Part shown: positions 2,384-37,037 of the stretch, in pieces
Numbering within the stretch: the stretch's first letter is position 1
How the letters are laid out: every line of letters begins with the position of its first letter
Source of the DNA: a phage
Strand: one strand, 5' to 3'
DNA: 64,000 nucleotides
Sequence record: PZ445134.1
Translations under genes and position numbers: made by a program
Notes under the pieces: generated by a model
Databases searched by the model: none
Told to the model about the DNA's origin: nothing
What the model saw: only the letters and a program-made list of their open reading frames with translations

Positions 2384-3709
2384 TCATAGAGCCTCCAAGT
2401 CTTTAGTGTACTCTGTCACAACATCAGTAGACTTCCAATACTCATTTTCTTCTTTCTTAGCTTTAGCTTCTTCTGCCAGTTTACGCGCTTCGTCGGAAGT
2501 GATATGGAAGATGTTAAGGCCTACCAGTTTATCGACATGTTCTTTATACATTTCGATTTGTGCTAGCTCTTCAGTCAAAGCTTTACGAGTCTTGCCCTGA
2601 ATCACAATTTCACCGTTGATAACTTTTTTGATGAAGTGTGCCTTAGCAAAAGCAAGTTTAAATGCTTTTTCGGATTCAAGGATTTTGTTGTCAATACGTT
2701 TCTGAACGTAAGTCTTACGGACTTCAACAAAATCTTTGATTAAGTCCACTACGTTATCGTAGACAGCTAATTTACCCTTTTCATTAATCACTGTGATATT
2801 TTGTGAACGACGTTCGATGAGACTAAAATCTTTCATGATTTTTTCATGACGTAGCTCTTCATCATCAGGAAGCGAGTACTCTTTACGGAACTTCACTTTA
2901 AACCCAAAGCCGTGTTCACCACAATCATCTTCCCATGAGATTAGACCTTTGTCTTCCAATGGGTCAAGAACCTTACTCACATATGTTTCACGGTCGAATT
3001 TATATGGGATTTCAGTTATCTGCATTTGAGTGCGAGATGTGAACTTATATGTTCCGTGAATCTCATAACGTCCATCAACTTCATGTACTTCACCACGGAA
3101 TTCCGGGAATTCAACTTTTGGCTTAGTGACATTTTTACCTTGAAGAGCTTGTAATACAGCCTTTTTGACTGATTTAAAACTATGAGGCAGAATATTTGTT
3201 GCGTAACCGGTTGCAATACCAGAGACACCATTCAAAAGAACTGTTGGAATAATAGGAAGATAGAATTTTGGTGGAATGTGTTCTTTATCTTCATGAGCTG
3301 GAGCATATTCAGTATCTTTATATACGTTATAGAAATTTTTACTTACACGAGCAAAAATATAACGAGATGCTGCAGCTTTTTGGACTGTTCTAGAACCAAA
3401 GTTGCCTTGGCCATCTAACAGTGGATAGTTGTTGTTCCATGTGTTAGCCATCAATGCACCTGCATCTTGTGCAGAAGATTCACCATGGTGATAACCTAAA
3501 TCTGCAACACCGCCTGCAATTGACGCAAGTTTATGAAATTTTTCTTTATTACCACGAGCCAAATCTAACGCACGATGAACCACAAAACGTTGAACCGGCT
3601 TAAATCCATCAATCATGTTTGGGATTGCACGGTTTTCAACGGTGTACATCGCATATGCTAAGGCTTCGTTATCAATAATACTTTTTAGATTACGAGAATT
3701 CAATTCCAT
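2384..3709 (-). CDS. 52: DNA topoisomerase II medium subunit (GyrA-like)
   Basis: 441 aa, same length as T4 gp52; position between motA and ndd. Confidence 0.85.
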   Translation of the reverse strand: MELNSRNLKSIIDNEALAYAMYTVENRAIPNMIDGFKPVQRFVVHRALDLARGNKEKFHKLASIAGGVADLGYHHGESSAQDAGALMANTWNNNYPLLDGQGNFGSRTVQKAAASRYIFARVSKNFYNVYKDTEYAPAHEDKEHIPPKFYLPIIPTVLLNGVSGIATGYATNILPHSFKSVKKAVLQALQGKNVTKPKVEFPEFRGEVHEVDGRYEIHGTYKFTSRTQMQITEIPYKFDRETYVSKVLDPLEDKGLISWEDDCGEHGFGFKVKFRKEYSLPDDEELRHEKIMKDFSLIERRSQNITVINEKGKLAVYDNVVDLIKDFVEVRKTYVQKRIDNKILESEKAFKLAFAKAHFIKKVINGEIVIQGKTRKALTEELAQIEMYKEHVDKLVGLNIFHITSDEARKLAEEAKAKKEENEYWKSTDVVTEYTKDLEAL

Positions 3710-4876: not shown

Positions 4877-5068
4877 AATTAAATTACATTAAAATATGTT
4901 AAAGCCAACCATGTTCCAGTGAACGAACATGCGATGTAAAAACCCGTATCGCAAATTGTTCTTAGTACAATAAGAAGTGCATTTTTCATAAGTACCTCAA
5001 TACAATTGAAAATATTATACAAATCATAGGGATACTAAGCAACCATATTCCGATCCACATTTTAGAAC

Positions 5069-5332
5069 TCATATCTCAACTTCCGCGAGTTCCATATATC
5101 CTTTGTTGATAACCTCTTTAAGGTCTTTAGAAAGAATAACATTAAAATGGTCGTTCATATGTCCATTAACTAAACGAGTTATTTCGGCTTCAGATGACAT
5201 ATAAGGCACGTCTGAGTCCCAATGAGATAGACCCAAATGGGTATAAATCATCCCTTCGTCATCTGCAGTGTTGTACATTGAAACAAATTCGCCTGTTACT
5301 TTATGTTTTGCGTAGAAAAATTTAAATTTCAT
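5069..5332 (-). CDS. hypothetical protein (87 aa)
   Basis: ORF track; promoter cassette upstream at ~5350-5390. Confidence 0.45.
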   Translation of the reverse strand: MKFKFFYAKHKVTGEFVSMYNTADDEGMIYTHLGLSHWDSDVPYMSSEAEITRLVNGHMNDHFNVILSKDLKEVINKGYMELAEVEI

Positions 5333-5400
5333 GATGTTATCCTCTTTTAGATAGGACTACTATATCATAGTCCTACTTAGTTGTAAACACTTTTATGAAA

Positions 5401-5958
5401 TTAAAGATGAAGATACCAGCCGTTGTAGTTGCTCTTGCGGACGATTTTCTTTAGGTCTTCATGGTCTCCCACGAACTTTATAGAATAAGAGAAGACGTCA
5501 GGTGAGGTTTCTTTGACATTCAATATAATAATACAGTCTGCAACTCGATGATTCAGGAATGGCCCTATGTTGATTCCGTTGCCACCCGGATAATCACCAC
5601 TGTATCCTGTGGTAACAGAAATCCATTTAGAATCCATCTGATGTGTCTTGACTTCTACACGAATTCCACAATATTTGGGATGGGCTAACACGTCCCATGC
5701 ATACGTGTACGGGTCTTCTACGTCTTCAATACCTTTATTAACATATCCGTCTAGCCAATTTGCTACTACATACTCTGCAAAGACCGCAACCTTACAACGT
5801 CGAACTACATCTTCTTTGTTTTGGTCAGGATTTTGGCTCAGGGAATACCGAGCAGTGTCAGCAATCTTCACCTTCATTTCACTAGTCAAAAACTCATTCG
5901 ACAGGATAAATGTCGGAAGATTCTTCAGTCTCAACAGTCCCAAGTTCGTCTTTACCAT
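5401..5958 (-). CDS. denB: probable endonuclease IV DenB (185 aa from internal ATG)
   Basis: position between ndd and rIIB; refined start at ATG with RBS AGAGGT gives 185 aa, the T4 DenB length; ORF track start at 6021 is probably a non-ATG extension. Confidence 0.45.
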   Translation of the reverse strand: MVKTNLGLLRLKNLPTFILSNEFLTSEMKVKIADTARYSLSQNPDQNKEDVVRRCKVAVFAEYVVANWLDGYVNKGIEDVEDPYTYAWDVLAHPKYCGIRVEVKTHQMDSKWISVTTGYSGDYPGGNGINIGPFLNHRVADCIIILNVKETSPDVFSYSIKFVGDHEDLKKIVRKSNYNGWYLHL

Positions 5959-6181
5959 AGATACCTCTGATGTGTAGTTCGCCAAAATAAATGCGGTCTC
6001 CTTCTTCAAGATAGTTAGCATCTACCGGTGGGATTTCAATAACAACTTCGTCGCATTCTAACCAGCCGTAGTGTGCATCACCAGGATGTTTTACCAATTT
6101 AGCGCAATAAACTGATTTACACTTATGATGACCACGAAGATTAGCAATTTTGGATTCTGATACGTCAAATGGATGAATCAT
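5894..6181 (-). CDS. hypothetical protein (95 aa)
   Basis: ORF track; overlaps refined denB start by ~65 nt. Confidence 0.4.
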   Translation of the reverse strand: MIHPFDVSESKIANLRGHHKCKSVYCAKLVKHPGDAHYGWLECDEVVIEIPPVDANYLEEGDRIYFGELHIRGIYGKDELGTVETEESSDIYPVE

Positions 6182-6222
6182 AATTACCCCTAAAGAAAAA
6201 AAGGGACCGAAGTCCCCAATTA

Positions 6223-7158
6223 TTATTCTGCAAATAATTCAGTAACGTCTGAAATTACTTCATAACGACAAGTACGCATCTTAGCATCACCATAGTCAAC
6301 CGGGATGGATACAACATCACGTGGATGAACTTTAACCTTAACAACTTTATCTGAGCTTGAACCAAAGTGGCGAATATAAGATTTAGCACAAACGTGGAGA
6401 CCGCGAGAACAGGTTTGAGTATCATCGTCGTTAACTCGAGTACGAGGCATTGAAACAACTTTACCTGGGGAGTTATCAAATGTGCCGCTATAGCAATCTA
6501 AATAGTCTTTACGAACTACTTTCCACGCATAGAAATGCCCATCTTCAGTGATTTCAATATCGTTTGCAACCAAGAAGTCGAATAAACGTTGTACAGCTTT
6601 TTCACTTGGGTTTTCTAACAGGTTTTCAAGGAACGGCAGATAGAATTTAAAGTCTTCGCCTTTTTCCATGGAATCAATAATACGATTAACCAGTCCTGAA
6701 CGAATTTCTATACCTTGATAAAATAAACTACCACCTTCAATAGTAACATTACCATCAACAAACTTACTAATAGCTTTCTTGATGTTAATAAGTTCGACAG
6801 CTTTACTAAGGTTTCCTGCGACCAGATTAGCTTTAATTTCTTCAAAATTTGCATGACTTGATGGGGTCGCATTGTATGCTACGCGTCCTTCAATAATTGA
6901 AATAAATTTAGATGACGCGTTCCATACGATTTCTGGACGATGTCCGCCGATAATAGGTTCATCATTTTCTGGAACCTGTTCTTCGTCTTCAAATTCAGCG
7001 GCTTTCTCTTCAGCTTTAAAATTCTTAACAATCTTACGAAGAGTGTCAGTGGAAATATTGAAGTAATCAGCAATTTCCTGACGAGTCCATTGGCCTGATT
7101 TAACCAGATCGTAAGCTTCTAACTGTTCTTCTTGAGACAAGCATTTAATATTGTACAT
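6223..7158 (-). CDS. rIIB: rIIB rapid-lysis/exclusion protein
   Basis: 311 aa (T4 rIIB 312); directly downstream of rIIA. Confidence 0.85.
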   Translation of the reverse strand: MYNIKCLSQEEQLEAYDLVKSGQWTRQEIADYFNISTDTLRKIVKNFKAEEKAAEFEDEEQVPENDEPIIGGHRPEIVWNASSKFISIIEGRVAYNATPSSHANFEEIKANLVAGNLSKAVELINIKKAISKFVDGNVTIEGGSLFYQGIEIRSGLVNRIIDSMEKGEDFKFYLPFLENLLENPSEKAVQRLFDFLVANDIEITEDGHFYAWKVVRKDYLDCYSGTFDNSPGKVVSMPRTRVNDDDTQTCSRGLHVCAKSYIRHFGSSSDKVVKVKVHPRDVVSIPVDYGDAKMRTCRYEVISDVTELFAE

Positions 7159-9393: not shown

Positions 9394-9594
9394 TCACAAG
9401 TTACGTTTAAAAATTTCTGCTACTTCAAGAAGTTCTTCTTTAGTAGCTGTATCGGTTTGTATTTTATATCGAATTTCTTTAAAGCGTTCTTTAAAAGACT
9501 CTGCCGACTCGATATCAAAAAATCGTTGGATAAGCCGGAATTCCCGGAGCACCGCTTTATCAAAAAGGTCCAAGTCCACGTTATATGTTCTCAT
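9394..9594 (-). CDS. hypothetical protein (66 aa), rIIA.1 position
   Basis: ORF track; synteny. Confidence 0.5.
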   Translation of the reverse strand: MRTYNVDLDLFDKAVLREFRLIQRFFDIESAESFKERFKEIRYKIQTDTATKEELLEVAEIFKRNL

Positions 9595-9686: not shown

Positions 9687-10787
9687 TTACGCTGTGAAGA
9701 TTTTATCCCACATCGCAACAACTGCATCTCGGTTATACTTCTTCCATACTGCTTCAGCACGTTTAACTCGAGCTTCGTATGTGTCAGTGAATTCTAATAC
9801 AGCTTTTGTGTAAAGCGCAACTACTTCTTTCTTAGGAGTAGAGGAATCAATTTCTACACGCACAGTATCTGGGTCGTATTCGAATGTCGCATGAGGATAA
9901 TCCTTAAAAACTAACTGGATTACAGGGACACCTTTAGAAATGGCTTCAATAGAACTATTCTCTACTGTACCTGTGTCAGGACACGTATTAATAAGTGCTT
10001 TAGCTGTTTTAAGACGTTCCATGATTTCACTGTGTGGAGCATCAATAATAACAGGATATTTAGCTGGTGGTGCCCATTTACTAGGACAGTATCCTGCACC
10101 GTTTTCGCCTAGTGCTTTAATCGCTTCAAGAGCAACATCGGCGCGACGCATTTTAGTGTCATAACGTTGTGCACTAATAATCAGATCAGTCGCCGGAAGA
10201 ACTTCAGGTTTCTCATTCAAACAAATAACCGGATAATCTTCGGCTTCAAACAACGGATTTGCTCGCCAATAATCATAATCAATTTTGTCAGTCAGAGCTG
10301 AAGTCATATGGCAATATTTACGTTCAAATTCACGGAAGGCTTTAGTAGGAGCATAACTCTTACCACCATTCTTATGAATTTGAATAGTCTGGTCCCAAAT
10401 TTGAACAATGCCACGAGATACCGGTTCAAATGGTGTTGCCATAAAATTCTTATGAACTTTAGAGAGACCTGCGTCTTTAATTGCCTGAACGGTTAGTTTA
10501 GTCGGTTCCATAGTAACAACAAAATCGTATTCATGGATGCCGGCTAGTTCAACAATCTTACGAGCCATAGTATAACTCATACCTAGACTGAATTTAGTCA
10601 GATGACCAACAGGATGGTGTGTAACTTTCCAGTCACCAAACGTGTCATTATCAAAGCCGATATAATCAATATCAGCACCAATAGAAACTAAATATTTCAA
10701 CACATTTAAATGTACTGCTTCAAGGCCACCTTGTACACGGTCAGGATTAAATGGGACTGCACGAGATGGGATAAACATAACTTTCAT
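9687..10787 (-). CDS. GT-B fold glycosyltransferase (candidate DNA hmC glycosyltransferase)
   Basis: 366 aa; C-terminal ...TVENSSIEAISKGVPVI... resembles the E-x7-E / LEAMA-G-PVV region of GT4-type GT-B enzymes; no counterpart at this locus in T4. Confidence 0.6.
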   Translation of the reverse strand: MKVMFIPSRAVPFNPDRVQGGLEAVHLNVLKYLVSIGADIDYIGFDNDTFGDWKVTHHPVGHLTKFSLGMSYTMARKIVELAGIHEYDFVVTMEPTKLTVQAIKDAGLSKVHKNFMATPFEPVSRGIVQIWDQTIQIHKNGGKSYAPTKAFREFERKYCHMTSALTDKIDYDYWRANPLFEAEDYPVICLNEKPEVLPATDLIISAQRYDTKMRRADVALEAIKALGENGAGYCPSKWAPPAKYPVIIDAPHSEIMERLKTAKALINTCPDTGTVENSSIEAISKGVPVIQLVFKDYPHATFEYDPDTVRVEIDSSTPKKEVVALYTKAVLEFTDTYEARVKRAEAVWKKYNRDAVVAMWDKIFTA

Positions 10788-10805: not shown

Positions 10806-10832
10806 TTAAAATGAAGCTCCCGAAGGAGCTTA
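10806..10832 (-). terminator. hairpin (UUCG tetraloop) overlapping gene 39 stop, followed by U-rich tract
   Basis: minus strand AAGCUCC-UUCG-GGAGCUU then CAUUUUAAUUUU. Confidence 0.45.
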
Positions 10833-12647
10833 GGACATCCATTCTTTACGAAGTTCTGAATCGTCACCCAACAACATTTCAAAGAGTTCTTTCCAATTTT
10901 CAGGAAGTTTAACTACGTCGTACACAGGGTTCTGAATCATTTCACGATATTCTGACTTTTCAAGGGAGCCTAATCCCTTGATGTATCGAATACTATGCTT
11001 AGGAAGTGTATCTTTAGCTTCTTCATACTCAGCTACAGTATAAAACCATTTTTGAGTTTTGCCAATTTGTGCAATAATTACAGGCGTTTTAACAAAGCGA
11101 ATACGTCCTTGTTCAAACAATTCGGGCCAATTACTAAAGAAAGCAAGCAAAGCTGGATAAATACTTCCAAGACCGTCATGATCGGCATCGGTCATAATTG
11201 CAATATTACGATAGTTTGTATTCTCTGCCTTTTCACCAAGAATAAGACCTGTGATAGCACAGATATCAAAGAGCTCTTTATTCTTCATCATATCAGCATA
11301 TGACATACCCCAGCTATTCATCACCTTACCACGTAATGGGAATCCGCCGTGTAGTTCACGGTCACGAACATCAATGAGATAACCAATTGCAGAATCACCT
11401 TCTGTTAAGAACAATGTCGTATCTGCATCTTTACCACATTGGTTAGCTTTAATATGTTTATGAACCTTAGCTTTAGTTGCCTTTTTAGCTGCTTTAGTTT
11501 CTGCAGCCTTTTCTGCTGCCAATTTACGAGCTAATGCTGCTTCAACAATAGGCATAATCAAGGCTTCGTTTTTAAGAAGCGCCTGAGCAATTTTCTTAGC
11601 ATCTAATTGGATATGATTACGAATATCACCATACGTTGACGTTAAACGTTCTTTAGTCTGAGAATCAAAACGCATGTTGCTCATGTCTCTAATAAACATC
11701 AACATTGTGAGACATTCTTTAACACGAGCTTTAGTGACTTCAATACCCTTATATTTCTTTTTAATACCCGGCAAAAGATGTTCGCAGATATCATCCATTA
11801 CACATTCAACATGATGACCACCATTTTTAGTATGGATGTTATTCACATAAGTTAAATGACGAAAGCCATCTGGTGATGTTGTGAATGCTATAGAGACTTT
11901 ATCATTTTCTTGAATGATGTTATCTTCGCCAAATTGTTTAGCAAATCGTTTAAAATTACCATCAACCTTTTTACCATTAAATGTGAACTTGATATCAGGA
12001 TAAACGACTGCCAATGTTTGAAGTCGGTCTAAAGTAATATCTAAATAAATTTGAGATAAATTATGTTCTTCAAATGAAGAGAAATCAGGAGTGAAGATTA
12101 CTTTAGTGCCTTTACCTTTAGATTTCTTAGATGACCATGATTTGTTTTCCATTCCGTTTGAACAGTTAACAGTGATTTCATTTTCGCCATCTGACGTGAT
12201 GCCTGTAAACAACGTAGAGAAGATATTAGTTAAACTACTCCCGACGCCGTTCATACCACCGGTTTTACGTTCAGAGTCATCACCAAAGTTACCACCGGCC
12301 TTTGGAATAGTCCAGGCTGCTACAGGCCCAGGAATTTGTTCACCATTTTGGTCGGTGACCATTGCTTGAGGAATACCACGTCCGTTATCTTCAACAGAAA
12401 CTTGATTATTTTTAATTTGCACATCAATTTTATTTGCAAACTTAAATGATGTACGAATAGCTTCATCAACCGAGTTGTCAATAATCTCATCGATTAATTT
12501 AACCAGACCAGGAACATATTCAACTTGTTGATATTTACCAAACAAAAAACGCTCGTGGGCTTCTTTGGCCGAAGAACCAATATACATGCCACTTCGTTTC
12601 TTAATATGTTCTACATCTGACAATACCTTAATTTCATTTTTAATCAT
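10830..12647 (-). CDS. 39: DNA topoisomerase II large subunit (GyrB-like ATPase; unsplit 39+60)
   Basis: 605 aa; GHKL ATPase motifs (DNGRGIP); length equals T4 gp39+gp60 fused. Confidence 0.9.
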   Translation of the reverse strand: MIKNEIKVLSDVEHIKKRSGMYIGSSAKEAHERFLFGKYQQVEYVPGLVKLIDEIIDNSVDEAIRTSFKFANKIDVQIKNNQVSVEDNGRGIPQAMVTDQNGEQIPGPVAAWTIPKAGGNFGDDSERKTGGMNGVGSSLTNIFSTLFTGITSDGENEITVNCSNGMENKSWSSKKSKGKGTKVIFTPDFSSFEEHNLSQIYLDITLDRLQTLAVVYPDIKFTFNGKKVDGNFKRFAKQFGEDNIIQENDKVSIAFTTSPDGFRHLTYVNNIHTKNGGHHVECVMDDICEHLLPGIKKKYKGIEVTKARVKECLTMLMFIRDMSNMRFDSQTKERLTSTYGDIRNHIQLDAKKIAQALLKNEALIMPIVEAALARKLAAEKAAETKAAKKATKAKVHKHIKANQCGKDADTTLFLTEGDSAIGYLIDVRDRELHGGFPLRGKVMNSWGMSYADMMKNKELFDICAITGLILGEKAENTNYRNIAIMTDADHDGLGSIYPALLAFFSNWPELFEQGRIRFVKTPVIIAQIGKTQKWFYTVAEYEEAKDTLPKHSIRYIKGLGSLEKSEYREMIQNPVYDVVKLPENWKELFEMLLGDDSELRKEWMS

Positions 12648-12690: not shown

Positions 12691-12713
12691 AGCAAAAAGG
12701 GCCGAAGCCCTTA
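12691..12713 (-). terminator. intrinsic terminator (GGGC-UUCG-GCCC + U5)
   Basis: minus strand AAGGGC-UUCG-GCCCUUUUUGCUUU. Confidence 0.55.
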
Positions 12714-14620: not shown

Positions 14621-15040
14621 TTATGCAAAAGACGCTGGACAATATTTTTTGATTTGGAACTCAGGAACTACCATGAACTGACCAGCGAAAACGATGTTAT
14701 AAAGCTTAACACCATCTTCTACCCAACGGTCGCTAATAAATCCGGCGATTTGCTTAGTTTTCCATGGAGACCCATCAGTTGCAGCAGCAATAGTAAATTC
14801 ATGGTCTTTTACAACTAAAACTGATCTGCATAGTCCCCATTTGAACGCTTTTTCTTCTGGTTCAATGAATTGGCTTTTAACATAACCAATATTACCATCG
14901 GCGTCACGAACTTTAACTTCGTTACGTCCAAAAACCGGATCACTCACAGAAAGAACTTCAACCAACTTCCCGGCAACTTTAGAGCGAGAAGCAACAGATA
15001 CATATACGTAATCACCTGTAGAGAGATTTACAATATTCAT
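14621..15040 (-). CDS. hypothetical protein, tandem paralog A (139 aa)
   Basis: shares SRSK(A/V)AG(R/K)LVEV and GFISD(Q/R)WVEDG.KLYNIVF.G.F.VV blocks with the adjacent gene. Confidence 0.55.
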   Translation of the reverse strand: MNIVNLSTGDYVYVSVASRSKVAGKLVEVLSVSDPVFGRNEVKVRDADGNIGYVKSQFIEPEEKAFKWGLCRSVLVVKDHEFTIAAATDGSPWKTKQIAGFISDRWVEDGVKLYNIVFAGQFMVVPEFQIKKYCPASFA

Positions 15041-15049
15041 AATAATTCC

Positions 15050-15505
15050 TTAAGCTTTACGAGGAGACACATAGCGAGTGATTTCAGATTCTTTAACAAC
15101 TCGGAAGTCACCTAAGAATACGATATTGTATAACTTTTCACCATCTTCAACCCATTGGTCACTAATGAAGCCACACATAGTATCAGTTTTGCTTGGATAA
15201 CCATATTCGTCGATGAAGTCAAATTCTTTATCAGTCTGGAATTCAACACCTTTACACAAGGCCCATTTGAACTGTACATTAGGCTCATTGGAAGCAGAAT
15301 GAGCGCTCACAGGATTTTCCAAGAATTTAGGACTTACATAAGCGAACTGAACATCTTTTTGCCCAAAGTTATAAATGATTCGAACTTTAACTTCTTTAAT
15401 GCGTCCCATGCCATTTGTGCGAAGTCCCACCACTTCAACCAATCGTCCTGCAGCTTTAGAACGAGATACAGGCGATACATACTTAATTTCACCAATAGTA
15501 ATCAT
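15050..15505 (-). CDS. hypothetical protein, tandem paralog B (151 aa)
   Basis: see paralog A; RBS AGAGAGAGA; promoter cassette upstream. Confidence 0.55.
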   Translation of the reverse strand: MITIGEIKYVSPVSRSKAAGRLVEVVGLRTNGMGRIKEVKVRIIYNFGQKDVQFAYVSPKFLENPVSAHSASNEPNVQFKWALCKGVEFQTDKEFDFIDEYGYPSKTDTMCGFISDQWVEDGEKLYNIVFLGDFRVVKESEITRYVSPRKA

Positions 15506-15534
15506 AATTTCTCTCTCTTTGTTAAATTGAATTT

Positions 15535-15564
15535 ATTATACTCCAACCATCCTTGGTTGTAAAC
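15535..15564 (-). promoter_or_regulatory. early-type promoter cassette (GTTTAC ... CCAAGGATGGTTGG ... TATAAT)
   Basis: minus strand GTTTACAACCAAGGATGGTTGGAGTATAAT; same cassette recurs at 57599 and 58592. Confidence 0.5.
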
Positions 15565-15569
15565 TGATT

Positions 15570-16247
15570 TTATCGCTGTTTTACACTTAACGGGTCAGGA
15601 TTCTCAGGGACATCTTCAAGGCCAAGCGCATAACGCTGAGCATATTTTAACATCAAAATATCTTTAGCACAATCATGAATACTATCATGGGCAATGAATC
15701 CTTTTAACGTACCTATCGGTAATGGACACATACTTAATCCTCGTGTCAACGAGTAAGCTTCGATTGCCGTACGAATATCGCGTTGAGCCCAGAATTTAAC
15801 CGGTTCTAATTTATCAGTATCAATCTCTGGTTCAGGAACACCTTCATCACGATAGAGATCACGAATCAAATCGACCAAGATCGGGAAGTCAAAGCTCATA
15901 CCACGACACCACATCTGTGATTTCCATTGGTCAACTTTATTAGCTCGGCAATAATCTAAAAAGATTTTAATGCCTTCAAGCGTAGTGACATCGTCTTCAG
16001 ACGGAGCCAAGTTTTTACGTGCTTCAGCCGATTGTTCTTTCCACCATTTCATAGTGGATTTAGCGAAAACTCGCTTCCCTTTCTGAGAAGCTAAATTAAA
16101 TTTAATTCGCTTACCTCGTTGAACAAGTTCTTCAAATGATTCAACAACTTCAGGGTCGGAATTATATGCAATAACCGCAAGGTCAATAACAGCCGCTTTT
16201 GATGTATTGCCGAATGTTTCAAAATCTATAATAACATCAGTGCTCAT
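15570..16247 (-). CDS. dexA: exonuclease A (DnaQ-like 3'-5' exonuclease)
   Basis: 225 aa; N-terminal IIDFETFG exonuclease motif; synteny with dda. Confidence 0.8.
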   Translation of the reverse strand: MSTDVIIDFETFGNTSKAAVIDLAVIAYNSDPEVVESFEELVQRGKRIKFNLASQKGKRVFAKSTMKWWKEQSAEARKNLAPSEDDVTTLEGIKIFLDYCRANKVDQWKSQMWCRGMSFDFPILVDLIRDLYRDEGVPEPEIDTDKLEPVKFWAQRDIRTAIEAYSLTRGLSMCPLPIGTLKGFIAHDSIHDCAKDILMLKYAQRYALGLEDVPENPDPLSVKQR

Positions 16248-21890: not shown

Positions 21891-22412
21891 TCAGTAACCA
21901 TTATCCTGGCGTTCAAAGTTGTGTTGGTTTTTCAAGTAGTAAAGTTTAAAGATTTCTTCAGCGGAAAGACCCAGACCTTGGAACATGTTCAGGACAAAGT
22001 GGAGGATATCAATCATCTCGAATTTAATTTCAAGCTGGTCTTCAGGAGACAGTTCATCGATACGACGATTTCGATATTCAGCGTGTTGCGCCTTCCACGG
22101 TTTCCATACAGAGCTAGCGGCTTTTTCACCATTGCTCATACCACCAAGTGAAGTCAGCAGTTCACGGAATTCATCATCAATATAATCTTTCTGATTACGC
22201 AGCCAATCAACAACATCGCCAGCAGTGGCTAATTCATCAGGATGTTTGTTATGTTCAGGCTTGTCATTTGCCAGACGAACCTGTAAAGATTTCTGCATAT
22301 CAAGCATTACCTGCAGAGGGTCTTTATCTTCGTGAATCAGAGCATTAAAATAAGCTTCTTCTGCTTTATCAACACCAGAAATAAGTTGTGAACATTCGTT
22401 AAAGTGTGCCAT
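21891..22412 (-). CDS. 56: dCTPase/dUTPase (MazG-like)
   Basis: ORF track 21891..22427; likely start at MAHFNEC...; length ~173 aa as T4 gp56; synteny soc-56-61. Confidence 0.75.
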   Translation of the reverse strand: MAHFNECSQLISGVDKAEEAYFNALIHEDKDPLQVMLDMQKSLQVRLANDKPEHNKHPDELATAGDVVDWLRNQKDYIDDEFRELLTSLGGMSNGEKAASSVWKPWKAQHAEYRNRRIDELSPEDQLEIKFEMIDILHFVLNMFQGLGLSAEEIFKLYYLKNQHNFERQDNGY

Positions 22413-22502
22413 TATTTTTCCTTTCAATTTAGTATAAGAGAAGTTAATTCTAACATTAATTTTATAAAGCGTAATAAATAATAAGGTAACTAAGGAGATA
22501 TT

Positions 22503-22700
22503 ATGTTTAAACTTCCATCGTTAATCAACGCTATTAAAGGCAATAAAAAGAAAACTGCTATCGCTGCAATAGTTGTAGGTGGCATTATTTCATGGAACTT
22601 CGGGATTGCGCCATTGTTAGTTGCCCATGGTGTTATGGTTCCTTCTGTTCCATTGGATACTGTAGTTGATTTGGCCTTTGCTATTATAGGGCTTGTTTAA
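22503..22700 (+). CDS. small hydrophobic membrane protein (65 aa), plus strand
   Basis: strong RBS AAGGAG 6 nt before ATG; hydrophobic sequence; only plus-strand ORF in an intergenic gap. Confidence 0.35.
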   Translation: MFKLPSLINAIKGNKKKTAIAAIVVGGIISWNFGIAPLLVAHGVMVPSVPLDTVVDLAFAIIGLV

Positions 22701-30488: not shown

Positions 30489-31037
30489 TTAACGAGCCCA
30501 TTTGATAATTTCTGTAATCAAATTATTACGTTCGCTTGCATTAAATCCTATAACTTTGTTAGCACCATCATGATTAAGTAATTGATACGTTTGGATTTTG
30601 TTATGAATTGCAAACTCTTCAAAATATGAAATGACTGTATTAAAACCGAATGAAGACAAAGTAATAAGGTCGTCTTCAAAACTTTCAGTCATTTCGTTAC
30701 GTGTTAAAATAATTGTGAACACATCATGGTTTTGGCAAAGACGAACATAATCCTGTTCATAAACGTCAAGAACCGAGTCCACATCTTGTCGAATACGTCC
30801 ATAAACCCAGTTACTAATATATCCACGGTCTAACAGATAAATCTTAGTAGGGTCTAAATAATTCAACATCGTTTCGAAACAGCCAACTTCATTTCGAGAT
30901 TTAACATCGAAACGTCCATCAACTGTTCGTTTAGGGAAATCAATCTTTACATATCTTTCACTAATTTCCATTATGTCATTAATGAAAGTTGTTTTACCAG
31001 CATTATCCGGGCCATCTACTAAAATAATTTTAGCCAT
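30489..31037 (-). CDS. P-loop nucleotide kinase-like protein (TMPK/dNK-like)
   Basis: 182 aa; Walker A GPDNAGKTT; LLDRGY resembles the DR(Y/H) motif of thymidylate/deoxynucleoside kinases. Confidence 0.55.
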   Translation of the reverse strand: MAKIILVDGPDNAGKTTFINDIMEISERYVKIDFPKRTVDGRFDVKSRNEVGCFETMLNYLDPTKIYLLDRGYISNWVYGRIRQDVDSVLDVYEQDYVRLCQNHDVFTIILTRNEMTESFEDDLITLSSFGFNTVISYFEEFAIHNKIQTYQLLNHDGANKVIGFNASERNNLITEIIKWAR

Positions 31038-31038
31038 T

Positions 31039-31938
31039 TTATTCCTCGATTACGACATCTTCATATTTAGGTATATTATACGGTGAAGAAATTAAAGCAT
31101 TAAAGTAGATGAACTCACCAAGACCTGGATGGAATACTTCTTCAGGATTTTCGAAATATTGAATCTTCGGTCTTCCTTTAAGAATTTGATAGTACTCAGT
31201 TTTAGTTGGTTTAAAAATTCGAATCAGCGCTTCTTCAGGATACTTATTTCTGTCGAAGCTATTATTTGGATCGGTTATATAAAGCGGTTGACCTAATTGA
31301 ATTGCACATTCAACCACTTGTTCAAAACGATAACACGGGTCACTAATTCGAAATGGATGAAAAATACCATCTAGATGAATAGGAGCCAAATCACCTACAA
31401 GACGCTGCATGATGGAAGGACGTATAACTTTCTGGGTTACGATAATCTTATTACCATCTGCACCAGCGTTAACCAGCACTTCTTTTTGACGTTCATTCAA
31501 CACAGTAGTTTGAAGTGAACGATTAACCGACAACATGTCGGTTTTTAAGAATTCGTCAATGTAAAAACGTGGTTTATTAGGGTCTGCAGTGATATTGAAA
31601 TTGAATTCTACATCAAAAGCGCCGTCATATCCAGTGATATCTGTGATTAGAAAATCACAATCATAATAAGAAATTAATGAATCAACCACAAATTCATTTT
31701 CAGACCAGAAATATTTACGAGTGTTATACGCGTTATCTTTATACCATAATGGAACAAACTTAAATTCTGGGAAAAGACGTTCGCATTCTTTAATATCAGA
31801 TGCATTACGTGGATATGTAATCACATCACCCGGATTAGCACGGTGCAAATGAAGTTGGAAGTTGCCATCCTTAAGGATAGCATACTGTCCAGTTTCATAA
31901 GACCGCATACTCAAGATAGGTACGCGGAAAATAGCCAT
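31039..31938 (-). CDS. hypothetical protein (299 aa) at the locus where T4 has beta-glucosyltransferase
   Basis: ORF track; tight spacing with flanking kinase and gene 42; no recognisable motif. Confidence 0.5.
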   Translation of the reverse strand: MAIFRVPILSMRSYETGQYAILKDGNFQLHLHRANPGDVITYPRNASDIKECERLFPEFKFVPLWYKDNAYNTRKYFWSENEFVVDSLISYYDCDFLITDITGYDGAFDVEFNFNITADPNKPRFYIDEFLKTDMLSVNRSLQTTVLNERQKEVLVNAGADGNKIIVTQKVIRPSIMQRLVGDLAPIHLDGIFHPFRISDPCYRFEQVVECAIQLGQPLYITDPNNSFDRNKYPEEALIRIFKPTKTEYYQILKGRPKIQYFENPEEVFHPGLGEFIYFNALISSPYNIPKYEDVVIEE

Positions 31939-32654
31939 TAGTCAAGGAATCCTTTAACATAATCAAAATCACGTTCAAACACATGGGCACTTACCATGGT
32001 ATGAGTATAATCACCAACTTCTACACCACATTCGTTAGCTATATAATGAAGTAATTTTCCTTGGAGATAAAAATCCAACTGCATAACAACAGCACAGTTC
32101 TGAGAACGCATATGACAGTGGGTATAAAGCTTACCATCACGAATATAATAAGTCACTGAGTCAGTACATGGATATTCAAGTGTTTCGTCTGAATCAAGCA
32201 AAGCCTGATCAGAACTTTCTAGAATTTGGAACACAACTCTTCGAGAGTTAGGTTTTTCTTTAAGTTCTTTTAGAAGAGTTGGTAACTGGGCCGCAATTCG
32301 TGGACCGTAGAAAGTGTTGAAGTTTGCAGGCAAAGCATCTGATTTAGGTTTAGAAATAAATTTAGCGACGTTAGGATATGCCTTAAATGCTTCTTCTGCA
32401 TCAGTACCACCAGAAATCATAAATTTCCAGAAATCTTCAGCATATTCATAAGAGATGCGATTAATACGTGGGTCGGTCATTTTGAATGATGAAGGGGTAT
32501 CAACAACTACTGTCATAGACCCAATTTCATTACAACGTCCAATACGAGAATCAGTAACGAATTCCGGGTTTTCTAAAATTTCACGATTGACAGCTTTAAA
32601 TGCGGATTGAAAATCTGCGGCTTTAATATATTTCATTGTGTTATGTTTTCCCAT
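31938..32654 (-). CDS. 42: dCMP hydroxymethylase-like (thymidylate synthase fold)
   Basis: 238 aa; YPCTDSV...HCHMRSQN resembles the T4 gp42 catalytic Cys region (FMCTNTV...MRSND); synteny. Confidence 0.7.
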   Translation of the reverse strand: MGKHNTMKYIKAADFQSAFKAVNREILENPEFVTDSRIGRCNEIGSMTVVVDTPSSFKMTDPRINRISYEYAEDFWKFMISGGTDAEEAFKAYPNVAKFISKPKSDALPANFNTFYGPRIAAQLPTLLKELKEKPNSRRVVFQILESSDQALLDSDETLEYPCTDSVTYYIRDGKLYTHCHMRSQNCAVVMQLDFYLQGKLLHYIANECGVEVGDYTHTMVSAHVFERDFDYVKGFLD

Positions 32655-32787: not shown

Positions 32788-32937
32788 CTAGTTGAACAGG
32801 TTCTCTTTAATCACTTTAGCCGCTTTAGTTTCAAACAGGCCCATAAGGGCCTTTTTAAGAATTTGTTCGTTGTTGTTAATTTTAATAGTCAAAATCTCTT
32901 CGTTAAGTTGGTGGTTAAAAGTTTTTCTAGAAATCAT
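32788..32937 (-). CDS. small ORF (~49 aa) translationally coupled to the upstream Cys-rich protein
   Basis: ATG overlaps upstream stop (GAATGATT); below ORF-track cutoff. Confidence 0.3.
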   Translation of the reverse strand: MISRKTFNHQLNEEILTIKINNNEQILKKALMGLFETKAAKVIKENLFN

Positions 32938-34094
32938 TCTGGGTACCTCAAAGCGTCATCAGAGTTAGTTATATCAATAATAGATATAGAGTTTTCCGAT
33001 AACCCATTTTTAGATAACTGACGTTTATAATATCTTTCACAATATGTACACGTCGTCCCACAGATTTCATTAGCACAATCGAAATCTGGATGTTTGAACC
33101 ACCTTTTTTCTAAAAAGCCATCTAACAAAGAGGTTTCAATATTTACCGTATGTGAAAACTCAGTCTCATTTTCAAGAGTGAAAATGGTCTCTAAAGGCTT
33201 CCACAATTCCAACAAATTACCTTCAAATTTTTCAGAAGCATAAGCTTCAAGAACTTTCAAAATGTAGTCTGTGCTACCTGTACGTCCTGAAACTTTGAAT
33301 TGAGTGATACCAATATCATTATAAAGTTTCAAATCTTGAGGACGAACAAAACGAGTTCTCAACCAGTTAAATGGATCTGTATCACGAGCTTTAATACAGT
33401 GCTGCATTGGATATCCATTTAAGGATTTGGCATCATCTACTGTAACATCAGTGCTATGGAAAATATAGCAAGAGTCACGATAACTACAATGTGTTGTATA
33501 CCCTTTACCAGCATTAGAACAGAACTCATTTACAAGAACTTCAAATATTATATTGTTCTTATTACAAAACTCTGCTGCACGCTTCAGGAAAGAAACTGAA
33601 CGGTTCTTATGAATTCCACAGCAGACCTTTTTGATATTATATTGGTCATGCAAGTATTTGATTTGAGTTACAGCATCGACATGTAGAATTGTTGAAACTT
33701 CAATCTCAATGTCTTTATTGACTTCACGAACAATTTCCATAACAACAGGGTTAGCGATAGTAATACGCCAAACGCCTATTGACCAAAGATACTGAACATA
33801 ATCCTGAATAGCTTTCTTCTTCCACTCAACTAGTTCTCTTTTTGAACCAGGATTTATCGTGTTGAGTGTACAGTTAAAGCAAATACCTAATTCGTTACAA
33901 CGTTTAACGTAATCTTCTAACATCTTTTTGTCAACGTCAGGAAGCCTAAAATCAGGTCTGGCTGCTACAAAAGCCATTTCTCTTGTAGAGCCGTATACTT
34001 CGTTTATCAAGCTATTAGGATAAGTTTTATTGAGCTCTACGATTTTATCAAGAAGAGCTAAATCAAAATTCGTTCCGATTTTAAAGGTATTCAT
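32934..34094 (-). CDS. Cys-rich protein of unknown function (386 aa)
   Basis: multiple Cys clusters including C-terminal C-x4-C-x3-C-x2-C (DCANEICGTTCTYC); first gene of the block inserted between 42 and 43. Confidence 0.5.
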   Translation of the reverse strand: MNTFKIGTNFDLALLDKIVELNKTYPNSLINEVYGSTREMAFVAARPDFRLPDVDKKMLEDYVKRCNELGICFNCTLNTINPGSKRELVEWKKKAIQDYVQYLWSIGVWRITIANPVVMEIVREVNKDIEIEVSTILHVDAVTQIKYLHDQYNIKKVCCGIHKNRSVSFLKRAAEFCNKNNIIFEVLVNEFCSNAGKGYTTHCSYRDSCYIFHSTDVTVDDAKSLNGYPMQHCIKARDTDPFNWLRTRFVRPQDLKLYNDIGITQFKVSGRTGSTDYILKVLEAYASEKFEGNLLELWKPLETIFTLENETEFSHTVNIETSLLDGFLEKRWFKHPDFDCANEICGTTCTYCERYYKRQLSKNGLSENSISIIDITNSDDALRYPE

Positions 34095-34148: not shown

Positions 34149-34550
34149 TTATAGATTCGGTTTATATGATTTAAATGTTTCGAATTCGCCTTTATTCATA
34201 AGAGCTTTGAATTCGTCAGGACGCATAGCTTTGTCGTCGATAATCCAATCATATACTGGTTTATGTGTTAGCAAATTATGGTACTTCAATCCAATGTTTG
34301 CCAAGTTCTGAATCAGACTTGGGAGAATGTCAATTGCTATACGACCAGGACCGACTGACTTCATACCACGAGCAGTGTAAAGCGTTATGGTATGCCCTGC
34401 ATCATACAGGGCATTAATGGCAGACACCATTTCGACGTCTGGTTTGAAGTTCACGTAATCACGATTGTTATTCCACTCTGTTATACAATCATCGACATCA
34501 AAACAAAGATTAAGCATGTTTTCTACACGGTGCATTAGATTCGTTCCCAT
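34149..34550 (-). CDS. HAD-superfamily phosphatase (sugar-phosphate phosphatase-like)
   Basis: 133 aa; motif I FDVDDCIT, motif II TLYTARG, motif IV YDWIIDDK. Confidence 0.6.
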   Translation of the reverse strand: MGTNLMHRVENMLNLCFDVDDCITEWNNNRDYVNFKPDVEMVSAINALYDAGHTITLYTARGMKSVGPGRIAIDILPSLIQNLANIGLKYHNLLTHKPVYDWIIDDKAMRPDEFKALMNKGEFETFKSYKPNL

Positions 34551-36220
34551 TGATGAGTGATATCGCCACCGATTGGACGATAGGAAACACCAGTTTCTTT
34601 ATCAGTTAGTACCCATTTACCAGGATTTTTTGTAATCAGAGTAGCCGTTACAGGTTCTGCTACGTCATAACTAATAGAGCCGTCCTGAAGTACACGGCCC
34701 ATGTTACGTAATTGCTTAGTCAGAAGTTCCATACCTTTATAATATGCGGCTACCGCTTTAAGTGGATTATTCTTGAAATAACCACCTAATGCAATCCAGA
34801 TAATTGCCACTGCCAAATGATGATACTCGTTAAACGAACTCATCTTTCCATATTTGTAAACTAATGGATTGATGTTAATAGTCACATTACAAGTTGTTTC
34901 ATCAATAGTAAACTGTCCCCAGGTCGGATTAGCGTTGAATTCATCATACCCTGAAACAGCATAAAGCACTTTAGCTTCGTCATACAATTTTGGTCCGTAA
35001 ATCTTGGTTTCGCCAAAATATCCACGAGGGTCGATAAACTTGACTTCGCCGTTATCAGTAATCATAGTATTACTGAAGTTCGGGTCACCATGAATAACAG
35101 AGTACTGTCCCTGAGAACGGTTATGATAACGAATAAGGTGTTCTAAAGCTTGTTTCAACATTGGCTTCAGACGTCCGATCTTAGTGTAGTTCACATGTGT
35201 GATTTTACCAAATGAATCAATCAATGGTTGAATACTTTCACAACGATCAATAACTTTCGTATAGAATTCTTTAGTGAAATCACGACGAACAGTTTCAGGA
35301 CTTACAAAATAAGTGTCTGTGCTGAATTTCAGTGCGTCTAAAATTGCATCAACAATTTGTGGACGAGCAAGACTCGATTTGGATTTAATATATTCAAATG
35401 CCGGCTTACCTTTAATGCGTTCCATTTCAAAGTTATTTTCATTAACAGAAACTAACTGAGGAACTGAATCTGATTTCACTTTAAGATACCATGAAATCTC
35501 ATCTTTCTGAAGAGCTCGGCCCTGTTCGGTTAATGCGAATTTAGTTACAGTTTCTTCACCAATTTCAACGGCATTAAAACTACGATTAAGTTCACGAACT
35601 TCATGAGCTTTTTCAAGTTTAGGCATATCACCTAAATCAATTAGATTCATAAGCTCTGATTTATTGAATGCGCTGCCGTAAAGGAATTCTACGAAATCAC
35701 GTCCTTTGCAGTATTCATGAATTTCCTCATCAGTAGAACCCATATAGAATTCCCAGTCTTTGAACTGATAAATTCCTACAACATTACCACCTGTTGAACC
35801 TACGTTAGTGATATTTTCACCGTCGAAATTATATCGACATTCGTCGCCCTTAACATAGATTGCGTTAACATTCCAAGACCACGAACCAAAATCAGGAATA
35901 ATATCGCACCAGTTAACAATTACATTATGGCCGTCTAAATCTTTGTGTAATTTAGCAAGAGCATAAGCAGAACCGTACGCTTCATCAACTGTACGAATAG
36001 TCACATTGAACCCTTCTTGCTCACAATAAGCTCGAACAGTTTCAGCAAATTTTGAATGAACTACTACAATAATTTCATCTGCGCCAAGGTCAGAATAAAT
36101 TGTATACAAATTGCTCAGAATAGTGTCTTGTTTATAGTTAACAAGCACCTTAGGAATATGATGCGTTATTGGATACAAACGAGTTGCCAGTCCAGCACCA
36201 AGAATAACAGCTTTTTTCAT
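34535..36220 (-). CDS. bifunctional sugar-1-phosphate nucleotidyltransferase (RmlA-like) / sugar kinase (APH-like)
   Basis: 561 aa; N-terminus KKAVILGAGLATRLYPIT (G-x-G-x-R-L); C-terminal HGDPNFSNTMI ... FIDPRG kinase catalytic/DxG-like motifs. Confidence 0.7.
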   Translation of the reverse strand: MKKAVILGAGLATRLYPITHHIPKVLVNYKQDTILSNLYTIYSDLGADEIIVVVHSKFAETVRAYCEQEGFNVTIRTVDEAYGSAYALAKLHKDLDGHNVIVNWCDIIPDFGSWSWNVNAIYVKGDECRYNFDGENITNVGSTGGNVVGIYQFKDWEFYMGSTDEEIHEYCKGRDFVEFLYGSAFNKSELMNLIDLGDMPKLEKAHEVRELNRSFNAVEIGEETVTKFALTEQGRALQKDEISWYLKVKSDSVPQLVSVNENNFEMERIKGKPAFEYIKSKSSLARPQIVDAILDALKFSTDTYFVSPETVRRDFTKEFYTKVIDRCESIQPLIDSFGKITHVNYTKIGRLKPMLKQALEHLIRYHNRSQGQYSVIHGDPNFSNTMITDNGEVKFIDPRGYFGETKIYGPKLYDEAKVLYAVSGYDEFNANPTWGQFTIDETTCNVTININPLVYKYGKMSSFNEYHHLAVAIIWIALGGYFKNNPLKAVAAYYKGMELLTKQLRNMGRVLQDGSISYDVAEPVTATLITKNPGKWVLTDKETGVSYRPIGGDITHQWERI

Positions 36221-36401: not shown

Positions 36402-37037
36402 TCATTGTTCGCCTCGTAACATGGCACCTAGTGCACCGCCAGGGTGGAACTTAAGGAAGTCATTAGAGGTAAATCCACGTTCAGACGAAAGGTTGATAGC
36501 AAACGTATCGATAAGCGCTAACAACAATGTAGTGGACATAGTCGGAGCTAGAGAATTCTCATCAACCTCTACTGCGATGCCTGTACAGAACGTATAATCA
36601 AAAAGAGCTTCGTATTCTTGTGGAATGTCTGGGTTACAATGCAACAGAATCTGTTTGACGTTCGGACGAATCATTTTAAGATGCTTAGCCACGCCTATCA
36701 TTTCTTCAGTTTTACCGGAACGACTAATATGAATCAACACATCATTAGGCGCAATGAATCCTGCATCACCGTGAGAATAATGCCCAGTGTTCAAGTACAT
36801 ACTCGGGATACCGAGTGAAGCAAATGTCTCAGAAGCTTTAGTTGCAATATTAGCATTCTTACCAACACCTGTAATAATTACTCTGCTTTCATAATTACTA
36901 AGTCCCGGGCGTCGAAGAGTTTCTAGAATAGCATTATAACGAGCAGGGTTTTGACTAATTACTTTGGCCATAGCGGCCAAAGAAGAAGCTTGTTTTATGA
37001 TTGCGTCAATAGCGATAGTAATAGGAGTAGTTTTCAT
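36402..37037 (-). CDS. SIS-domain sugar-phosphate isomerase (KpsF/GutQ-like arabinose-5-phosphate isomerase type)
   Basis: 211 aa; GVGKNANIA and SRSGKTEE SIS motifs; C-terminal HPGGALG as in KdsD/GutQ. Confidence 0.7.
   Translation of the reverse strand: MKTTPITIAIDAIIKQASSLAAMAKVISQNPARYNAILETLRRPGLSNYESRVIITGVGKNANIATKASETFASLGIPSMYLNTGHYSHGDAGFIAPNDVLIHISRSGKTEEMIGVAKHLKMIRPNVKQILLHCNPDIPQEYEALFDYTFCTGIAVEVDENSLAPTMSTTLLLALIDTFAINLSSERGFTSNDFLKFHPGGALGAMLRGEQ

Follow-up and report, generated by a model that had tools for sequence, protein, structure and literature searches.

A conserved phage GT-B glycosyltransferase encoded next to the topoisomerase gene as the probable second arabinosyltransferase of a Mosigvirus DNA modification pathway

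The 366-aa glycosyltransferase gene lies between rIIA.1 and the topoisomerase gene

The DNA analysed here is a 64-kb stretch (hereafter, the window) from a Mosigvirus (RB69-like) phage. The gene under study and its immediate surroundings comprise the following features:

9394..9594, rIIA.1 homologue, 66 aa (phrog_1683)
9687..10787, minus strand, GT-B glycosyltransferase, 366 aa (phrog_8302; PDB 9iqz/9ir0; RB69ORF003c)
9918..9962, minus strand, ENSSIEAISKGVPVI, residues 276-290 of the glycosyltransferase, predicted nucleotide-sugar-binding region of the C-terminal domain (family alignment and hhalign)
10814..10831, minus strand, GC-rich hairpin followed by a T-rich tract (consensus scan and sequence)
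10830..12647, topoisomerase II large-subunit gene, 605 aa (phrog_543)

ORF calling and translation located an ATG-initiated ORF of 366 codons at 9687..10787 on the minus strand, between rIIA.1 and topoisomerase gene 39, in agreement with the initial annotation of this DNA, and on the same strand as every neighbouring gene. The accompanying statement that T4 has no gene here is incorrect, because T4 carries 60, 60.1 and mobA between rIIA.1 and 39. Genes 39 and 60 are fused in the window phage, with residues 452-605 of the product matching the gp60-type family phrog_7229. The 42-nt gap from the stop codon of gene 39 to the start of the glycosyltransferase gene contains the hairpin at 10814..10831, a putative terminator-like or RNA-stability element; a Shine-Dalgarno-like AAGG is found ahead of the ATG.

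In 164 phage records the DNA of the gene is matched with 90-99% identity. Its product is conserved with at least 95% identity in 156 records, all from Escherichia/Shigella Mosigvirus phages, and with 41-43% in 55 T4-like phages of Acinetobacter. This conservation of both DNA and protein, together with the crystal structure of a ca. 99% identical protein, indicates that the gene is genuine. Phage HY126 and the window are collinear, and in HY126 the location between rIIA.1 and the topoisomerase large subunit is maintained; in RB69, JS09 and others the gene is found at 2523-3620, directly after rIIA.

The 366-aa protein has a GT-B fold and belongs to a small family

The protein matched the unannotated family phrog_8302 over residues 1-366 of 366 (E 1.7e-221) and is the orthologue of RB69 gp3: the comparison with RB69-group proteins that the initial annotation had proposed gave RB69ORF003c, with 98.6% identity. 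A search of PDB sequences identified 9iqz and 9ir0, both ca. 99% identical and released in July 2025, which are titled "phage HY126 glycosyltransferase" in the fold library, one of them "with UDP". Only three substitutions separate our protein from the crystallised one, all of them in variable columns of the alignment and none in invariant ones. Binding of UDP is thus documented, through the title of entry 9ir0, for a protein that is ca. 99% identical.

Conventional family models did not recognise the protein: no Pfam family was obtained at E <= 10, the NCBIfam scan gave no match, including none to a glycosyltransferase model, and the gathering threshold of the Glycos_transf_1/GT4 HMM was not reached. 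Its relatives showed only GT4-conflict matches that scored 12-17 bits, below the cut-off of 26. A six-member HMMER profile run against 1.84 billion representative proteins produced 11 matches at E <= 0.001, one of them the marginal outlier P0135, and these are too few for a deeper alignment. Profile searches of PDB sequences with the families of this protein and of a 299-aa protein described below returned no glycosyltransferase other than 9iqz, and evidence from the fold was therefore needed. The AF2 model built from a six-sequence alignment is of low confidence (pLDDT 58.5), and this same model superposes on 9iqz/9ir0 with TM 0.72-0.74 in Foldseek, with 193 matches at E <= 0.001. The matches listed after the two HY126 entries have the GT-B fold and are, with few exceptions, UDP/GDP-sugar glycosyltransferases, such as BGluT (tetrahydrobiopterin glucosyltransferase), tll1591, WaaG, BshA, PimA and MshA, with 10-14% identity. 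These matches and the solved structure from HY126 confirm the initial assignment as a GT-B glycosyltransferase.

The same annotation had described a GT4-like E-x7-E region near the C-terminus. The peptide concerned, ENSSIEAISKGVPVI, is indeed present, but the spacing is E276-x4-E281, in the stretch D271-T-G-T-V-E276-N-S-S-I-E281, and not E-x7-E. All members of the family alignment have E276, N277 and E281. When aligned by hhalign with P0135, which has the canonical ETAGYAVFE, the second Glu falls on E281, and the position of the canonical first Glu is occupied by T or G in the family. The region is thus the homologue of the GT4 EX7E segment, with E-x4-E as its literal motif. We also contemplate, as a rather unlikely possibility, that this small lineage, confined to phages, is mechanistically distinct from GT4, for instance an inverting furanosyltransferase on a retaining-type scaffold, whose E-x4-E site would suit UDP-arabinofuranose as donor and a sugar on DNA as acceptor; it would then constitute a new glycosyltransferase family instead of a diverged member of GT4.

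The modified base is 5-hydroxycytosine and the sugar is probably supplied by the 42-43 block

The remaining genes with a predicted role in DNA modification, and a peptidase-U32-family gene situated among them, are:

21891..22427, minus strand, gp56-type dCTP pyrophosphatase (Pfam dUTPase_2/PRA-PH; HY126 annotation)
30489..31037, minus strand, thymidylate-kinase-like nucleotide kinase, 182 aa (phrog_761, E 7e-45)
31039..31938, minus strand, GT-B fold protein of the RB69 gp46:47 type, 299 aa, directly downstream of the gene-42 homologue (AF2, Foldseek)
31938..32654, minus strand, thymidylate-synthase-family enzyme in the gene-42 position (Pfam Thymidylat_synt)
32934..34094, minus strand, peptidase-U32-family protein, 386 aa (Pfam PF01136, 42.4 bits)
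34149..34550, minus strand, small phosphatase-like protein, 133 aa (phrog_1238; HY126 synteny)
34535..36220, minus strand, bifunctional sugar-1-phosphate nucleotidyltransferase and kinase, 561 aa (Pfam, NCBIfam, literature)
36402..37037, minus strand, SIS-domain arabinose-5-phosphate isomerase, 211 aa (Pfam SIS; phrog_5670, E 2e-116)

The initial annotation presumed that the phage DNA contains hmC, but the gene-42 homologue shares just 25% identity with T4 gp42. It is nearly the same protein as PDB 9iqc/9iqu/9ir2, entries with codes not far from those of 9iqz/9ir0. In an alignment of the window protein, T4 gp42, E. coli ThyA and the Maestro homologue, the gene-42 homologue has Asn at the position of ThyA D169, where T4 gp42 has Asp, and Asp at that of ThyA N177; the motif rows read MRSQNCA...QLD in the window, QRSCDVF...PFN in ThyA and MRSNDVV...RND in T4. 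Since D169N is a signature of 5-hydroxy-dCMP synthases (Lee et al., 2026, PMC13326640), the modified base is taken to be 5-hydroxycytosine and not hmC. A 5-hydroxy-dCMP synthase of the thymidylate-synthase type works with flavin and O2. Analyses by MS/MS and NMR identified the cytosines of RB69 as beta-D-Araf-(1->3)-alpha-D-Araf-5-hydroxy-2'-deoxycytidine, together with a mono-arabinosyl form (PMC13326640), and the same chemistry was described for the Mosigvirus NP in the Durham Collection paper, where the "ara-hmC" assignment of 2018 is called erroneous (PMC13390438).

The idea that the transferase is fed by the block of genes between 42 and 43 is sound, because the isomerase, the nucleotidyltransferase/kinase fusion and the phosphatase-like gene are all found there and the HY126 counterparts of the last two have been assigned to UDP-arabinofuranose synthesis. 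The 561-aa fusion, with Pfam NTP_transferase at residues 3-99 and kinase-like matches at 308-409, is the counterpart of RB69 gp52:53 and HY126 AfhE, and is the predicted maker of UDP-arabinofuranose; the 133-aa protein is the counterpart of RB69 gp51 and HY126 AfhF, its function being taken from PMC13326640. As summarised in that paper, which cites He et al. (2026), AfhE and AfhF convert arabinose-5-phosphate to the 1,5-bisphosphate, then to the 1-phosphate and finally to UDP-arabinofuranose.

A second transferase occupies the uvsX-42 interval

Searches by tblastn with T4 a-gt, b-gt and dam (from NC_000866) found no homologue in the 64-kb window, with a best E of 0.66, which agrees with the earlier proposal that the T4 glucosyltransferases are absent and that a different sugar is used. 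The 366-aa protein itself lacks similarity to T4 a-gt and b-gt in blastp and tblastn (E >= 7.8), so this comparison, suggested as a check, was negative. The three T4 loci had been described as empty, and this is right for alpha-gt and dam: the 47-55 interval contains only four small ORFs, and the 56-61 gap a single 65-aa ORF on the plus strand. It is wrong for the uvsX-42 interval, which contains the 299-aa GT-B protein and the 182-aa kinase-like protein; RB69p045 is named "nucleotide kinase" in PMC13326640. According to the structural model, the beta-gt slot is thus occupied by a predicted transferase that is not homologous to that of T4.

The 299-aa protein received no family annotation in the Pfam and PHROGs scans. 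Its AF2 model, built from 28 homologues, has a pLDDT of 94.5 and matched in Foldseek MshA (3c4q), UDP-GlcNAc 2-epimerases, plant and bacterial UGTs and sucrose-phosphate synthase (6kih), reproducing the description of RB69 gp46:47 as a GT-B protein by Lee et al. (2026, PMC13326640). Homologs occur in 349 phage records, from phages of Escherichia, Klebsiella, Serratia, Enterobacter, Proteus, Yersinia, Acinetobacter (57 records) and other hosts, including the Shewanella phage Thanatos-2, with 48% identity. In every listed record with an annotated flanking gene, the homolog is adjacent to that of the synthase. From this distribution, the 299-aa transferase appears to be the enzyme common to all arabinosylating T4-like phages. 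We also considered that the two transferases of the window might be paralogues, but abandoned this explanation because BLAST found no similarity between them.

The 366-aa enzyme probably adds the second arabinose

The family of the 366-aa protein is present in only 212 records, with one copy in Mosigvirus and two in each of the Acinetobacter phages, and these 212 records include no member from Shewanella phages, Thanatos-2 among them. The DNA of Thanatos, a relative of Thanatos-2, is described as mono-pentosylated/mono-arabinosylated, with a single ara-GT (PMC12838424; PMC13326640); RB69 and NP contain mono- and di-arabinosyl cytidine, and DLP3 the tri-arabinosyl form (PMC13326640; PMC13390438). 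The DNA of Bas46 and Bas47 is di-arabinosylated. The number of genes of this family (none in Thanatos, one in Mosigvirus, two in Acinetobacter phages) thus follows the number of sugars. In Maestro, an Acinetobacter phage, both homologues (56% mutual identity) are contiguous with the genes for the synthase, the 299-aa transferase, the kinase and UDP-Ara synthesis. Additionally, purified DLP3 gp76 plus gp77 transfer a further Araf from UDP-Araf in vitro when RB69 DNA is the substrate (PMC13326640). With one transferase per sugar, and a universal one beside the synthase, the 366-aa gene is the strongest candidate for adding the second arabinose, in beta-1,3 linkage. A point against this is that DLP3 transferases assayed singly showed no activity on 5hoC-DNA (PMC13326640).

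We thus consider it likely that the 366-aa protein is a UDP-Araf-dependent GT-B enzyme that adds the second arabinose to phage DNA in the arabinosyl-5-hydroxycytosine pathway; the sugar donor, DNA as the acceptor and the assignment to the second step are what we infer. The initial annotation considered this gene the prime candidate for the DNA sugar transferase, which is probably not the case, given that a second GT-B protein adjoins the gene-42 homologue and is common to all arabinosylating phages. A published proposal has the same division of labour, with the enzyme adjacent to gene 42 as the first transferase and the RB69 gp3-type gene as the second (PMC13326640; PMC13390438), and Lee et al. 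list RB69 gp3, as a hypothesis, as "beta-arabinosyltransferase 2" (PMC13326640). According to a secondary source (PMC13216743), deletion of an unspecified Aat arabinosyltransferase sensitises Bas46 to a defence system, and the effect agrees with a dispensable outer-sugar enzyme.

The soluble 366-aa enzyme would be one of two transferases in the pathway and would act on phage DNA after replication. The thymidylate-synthase homologue beside uvsX would convert dCMP to 5-hydroxy-dCMP, to be incorporated by the DNA polymerase, and the gp56-type pyrophosphatase would clear dCTP so that only the modified cytosine is incorporated. Pentose phosphate would be converted to UDP-D-arabinofuranose by the products of the genes between 42 and 43, and the synthase-adjacent 299-aa transferase would place the first alpha-D-Araf on O5 of the base. 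UDP-Araf would then be held in the C-terminal Rossmann domain of the 366-aa enzyme, with participation of the invariant E276, N277, E281, R208 and R214, and a second, beta-linked D-Araf would be joined to O3 of the first sugar. The expected product is beta-D-Araf-(1->3)-alpha-D-Araf-5-hydroxycytidine, as in RB69.

Other assignments of the 366-aa enzyme have to be weighed against this one. It might be the primary, base-proximal transferase, leaving another role or a later sugar to the 299-aa protein, as would be suggested by its being the sole candidate recognised in 2018 (PMC6024577) and a genuine GT-B enzyme that binds UDP. At least 137 phage records, however, have the synthase-adjacent 299-aa transferase and no homologue of the 366-aa protein; Thanatos is among these phages and its DNA is nevertheless pentosylated (PMC12838424). 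As the 299-aa protein also yields a confident GT-B model of its own, we regard this assignment as unlikely. Still less probable is that both enzymes act in parallel on the base, in the manner of the T4 alpha- and beta-glucosyltransferases, creating different first linkages, with the second sugar coming from either of them. T4 provides a precedent for a pair of primary transferases (PMC13216743), and mono- and di-arabinosylated species do coexist in RB69 DNA, but NMR of the RB69 and DLP3 nucleosides revealed a single alpha linkage to the base, with beta linkages only between sugars (PMC13326640), and the copy number of the 366-aa family increases with chain length.

It is very improbable that the 366-aa enzyme has a host-takeover function and a target other than DNA, for instance a protein, or LPS or capsule intermediates of the host. 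Its nearest non-phage structural neighbours are indeed glycosyltransferases for LPS, lipids and small molecules (WaaG, PimA, BshA, MshA), and in Mosigvirus the gene is ca. 20 kb away from the modification cluster. Against this, the gene is embedded in the DNA-modification cluster of the Acinetobacter phages, the family is restricted to phages with poly-arabinosylated DNA, the DLP3 homologues act on DNA in vitro (PMC13326640) and, by eye, the translation contains no conspicuous hydrophobic stretch. Addition of the second arabinose thus remains our preferred assignment.

Comparison with known transferases

The closest known proteins are RB69 ORF003c/gp3 (NP_861693.1), the HY126 glycosyltransferase (9iqz, 9ir0) and "Aat" of Bas46 and Bas47. 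The RB69 and HY126 proteins are of equal length and position and 98-99% identical to the 366-aa protein, and nothing of substance differs. Like the 366-aa protein, the GT4-type enzymes PimA, MshA, WaaG and BshA have two Rossmann domains, with a Gly-Gly loop in the N-terminal part and, in the C-terminal part, a Glu that precedes a helix of small residues. A basic pair is also shared; it is R208/R214 in the 366-aa protein, with a spacing that presumably resembles that of R196/K202 in PimA. These enzymes differ in that identity is only 10-14%, the 366-aa protein has no match to Pfam Glycos_transf_1 and it lacks the first Glu of EX7E.

The DLP3 proteins gp76 and gp77 (Maestro 077/078), beta-arabinosyltransferases 2 and 3, belong to the same family over their full length, with 41-43% identity, and share with the 366-aa protein the invariant motifs GGLE, QRxD..R, CPSKWAP and TGTVEN.S.EAIS.G.P. 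Unlike the 366-aa gene, this pair is duplicated and lies inside the modification cluster, and gp76 and gp77 jointly add a third arabinose, in beta-1,5 linkage, which is absent from Mosigvirus DNA. The resemblance to the T4 alpha- and beta-glucosyltransferases, a predicted one as regards the activity of the 366-aa enzyme, consists of the GT-B fold, the UDP-sugar donor and the post-replicative glycosylation of a C5-substituted cytosine; an HHpred relation of RB69 ORF003c to T4 a-gt has been reported, with E 1.9e-24 (PMC6024577). The T4 enzymes are nevertheless encoded at another locus, transfer glucose instead of arabinofuranose, show no similarity detectable by BLAST and have as acceptor the hydroxymethyl group of hmC, whereas the predicted acceptor here is a sugar on 5-hydroxycytosine.

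The 366-aa gene was already known. Thomas et al. (2018) had proposed RB69 ORF003c as the arabinosyltransferase of RB69 because HMM/HHpred comparisons related it to GT-B enzymes, T4 alpha-GT among them (PMC6024577), the 5-hydroxycytosine chemistry was published in 2025-2026 and the crystal structure with UDP was released in 2025. As candidate, chemistry and structure are all public, the finding adds no new knowledge; its value is that of a correct rediscovery, with details in need of correction. Cytosine arabinosylation shields Mosigvirus DNA from restriction enzymes, DNA glycosylases and some CRISPR systems, and the number of sugars alters which host defences see the phage, with consequences for the choice of therapeutic phages and for phage genome engineering.

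A peptidase-U32-family gene within the 42-43 block

The 386-aa U32-like protein, which also shows a weak match to UbiU and is labelled only "sugar or heterocycle reductase" in PMC13326640, is the most conserved of the cluster, with at least 80% identity across 222 records whose phages range from those of Escherichia to those of Shewanella; Acinetobacter is absent from the genera named in the matches, although the 299-aa transferase is present in 57 records of Acinetobacter phages. We searched the window for a chorismate mutase gene and found none. In vB_KM5a1-KLB31 (Klebsiella) and in Thanatos-2 (Shewanella), the U32-like gene is followed by a gene for chorismate mutase type II, which is above the Pfam threshold in both phages. 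The peptidase-U32 proteins RlhA and TrhP are implicated in making 5-hydroxycytidine in rRNA and 5-hydroxyuridine in tRNA, respectively, and prephenate is prominent in both papers (PMC5727448; PMC6599085). By analogy with this chemistry, and in view of the pairing with chorismate mutase and of the use of O2 by this type of synthase, we hypothesise that the phage U32 protein could allow phages of facultative anaerobes to obtain 5-hydroxycytosine independently of O2.

The synthase and the peptidase-U32-like gene

Two genes of the arabinosyl-5-hydroxycytosine cluster are considered here:
31938–32654 (−), gene in the T4 gene-42 position
32934–34094 (−), peptidase-U32-family gene, inside the cluster

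The product of the first gene shares only 25% identity with the T4 dCMP hydroxymethylase; it has Asn at the position of ThyA D169, a published signature of 5-hydroxy-dCMP synthases (PMC13326640), and is near-identical to PDB entries 9iqc, 9iqu and 9ir2.

The peptidase-U32-family protein is conserved at 80% identity or more in 222 phage records, whose hosts span many genera. Acinetobacter phages are absent among the genera named for these records, and the cluster of Acinetobacter phage Maestro does not contain the gene. A chorismate mutase type II gene directly follows the U32 gene in a Klebsiella Kanagawavirus (L005, the vB_KM5a1-KLB31 cluster, 4983–6394) and in Shewanella phage Thanatos-2 (L006, 6001–7391).

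Two U32 proteins, RlhA and TrhP, have been linked to the formation of ho5C and ho5U in RNA, and prephenate is prominent in the corresponding papers (PMC5727448, PMC6599085). On this basis, the U32 protein of the cluster may be an O2-independent cytosine C5 hydroxylase, complementing the O2/flavin-dependent synthase. No discussion of such a role for a phage U32 protein was found in the literature searched.

Differences from T4 and HY126

The topoisomerase region and the T4 dam position contain:
10814–10831 (−), GC-rich tetraloop hairpin with T-rich tail, directly 3′ of the gene 39 stop codon
10830–12647 (−), topoisomerase II large subunit, a single 605-aa protein
12697–12712, GC-rich tetraloop hairpin with T-rich tail, directly 3′ of the stop codon of the gene upstream of 39
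22503–22700 (+), 65-aa hydrophobic ORF

Residues 452–605 of the single topoisomerase protein match the gp60-type family; this phage therefore has neither the 39/60 split and gene-60 translational bypass of T4 nor its 60.1/mobA insert. The two short hairpins, each with a TTCG loop, flank the topoisomerase gene and lie ahead of the transferase gene; they are predicted to be terminator-like or RNA-stabilising elements.

Whereas T4 carries dam between gp56 (dCTPase) and gp61 (primase), only the 65-aa ORF is found there, with all surrounding genes on the opposite strand; the same ORF is annotated in HY126 as a hypothetical protein.

Comparison of 15050–15570 with 15029–16041 of the HY126 stretch (L001) showed that, among the motB.x ('transcriptional regulator') genes located upstream of dexA, HY126 has one of ca. 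0.5 kb that is missing from the window, and that the preceding gene encodes 151 aa in the window versus 172 aa in HY126; all downstream coordinates are therefore shifted by ca. 0.5 kb.
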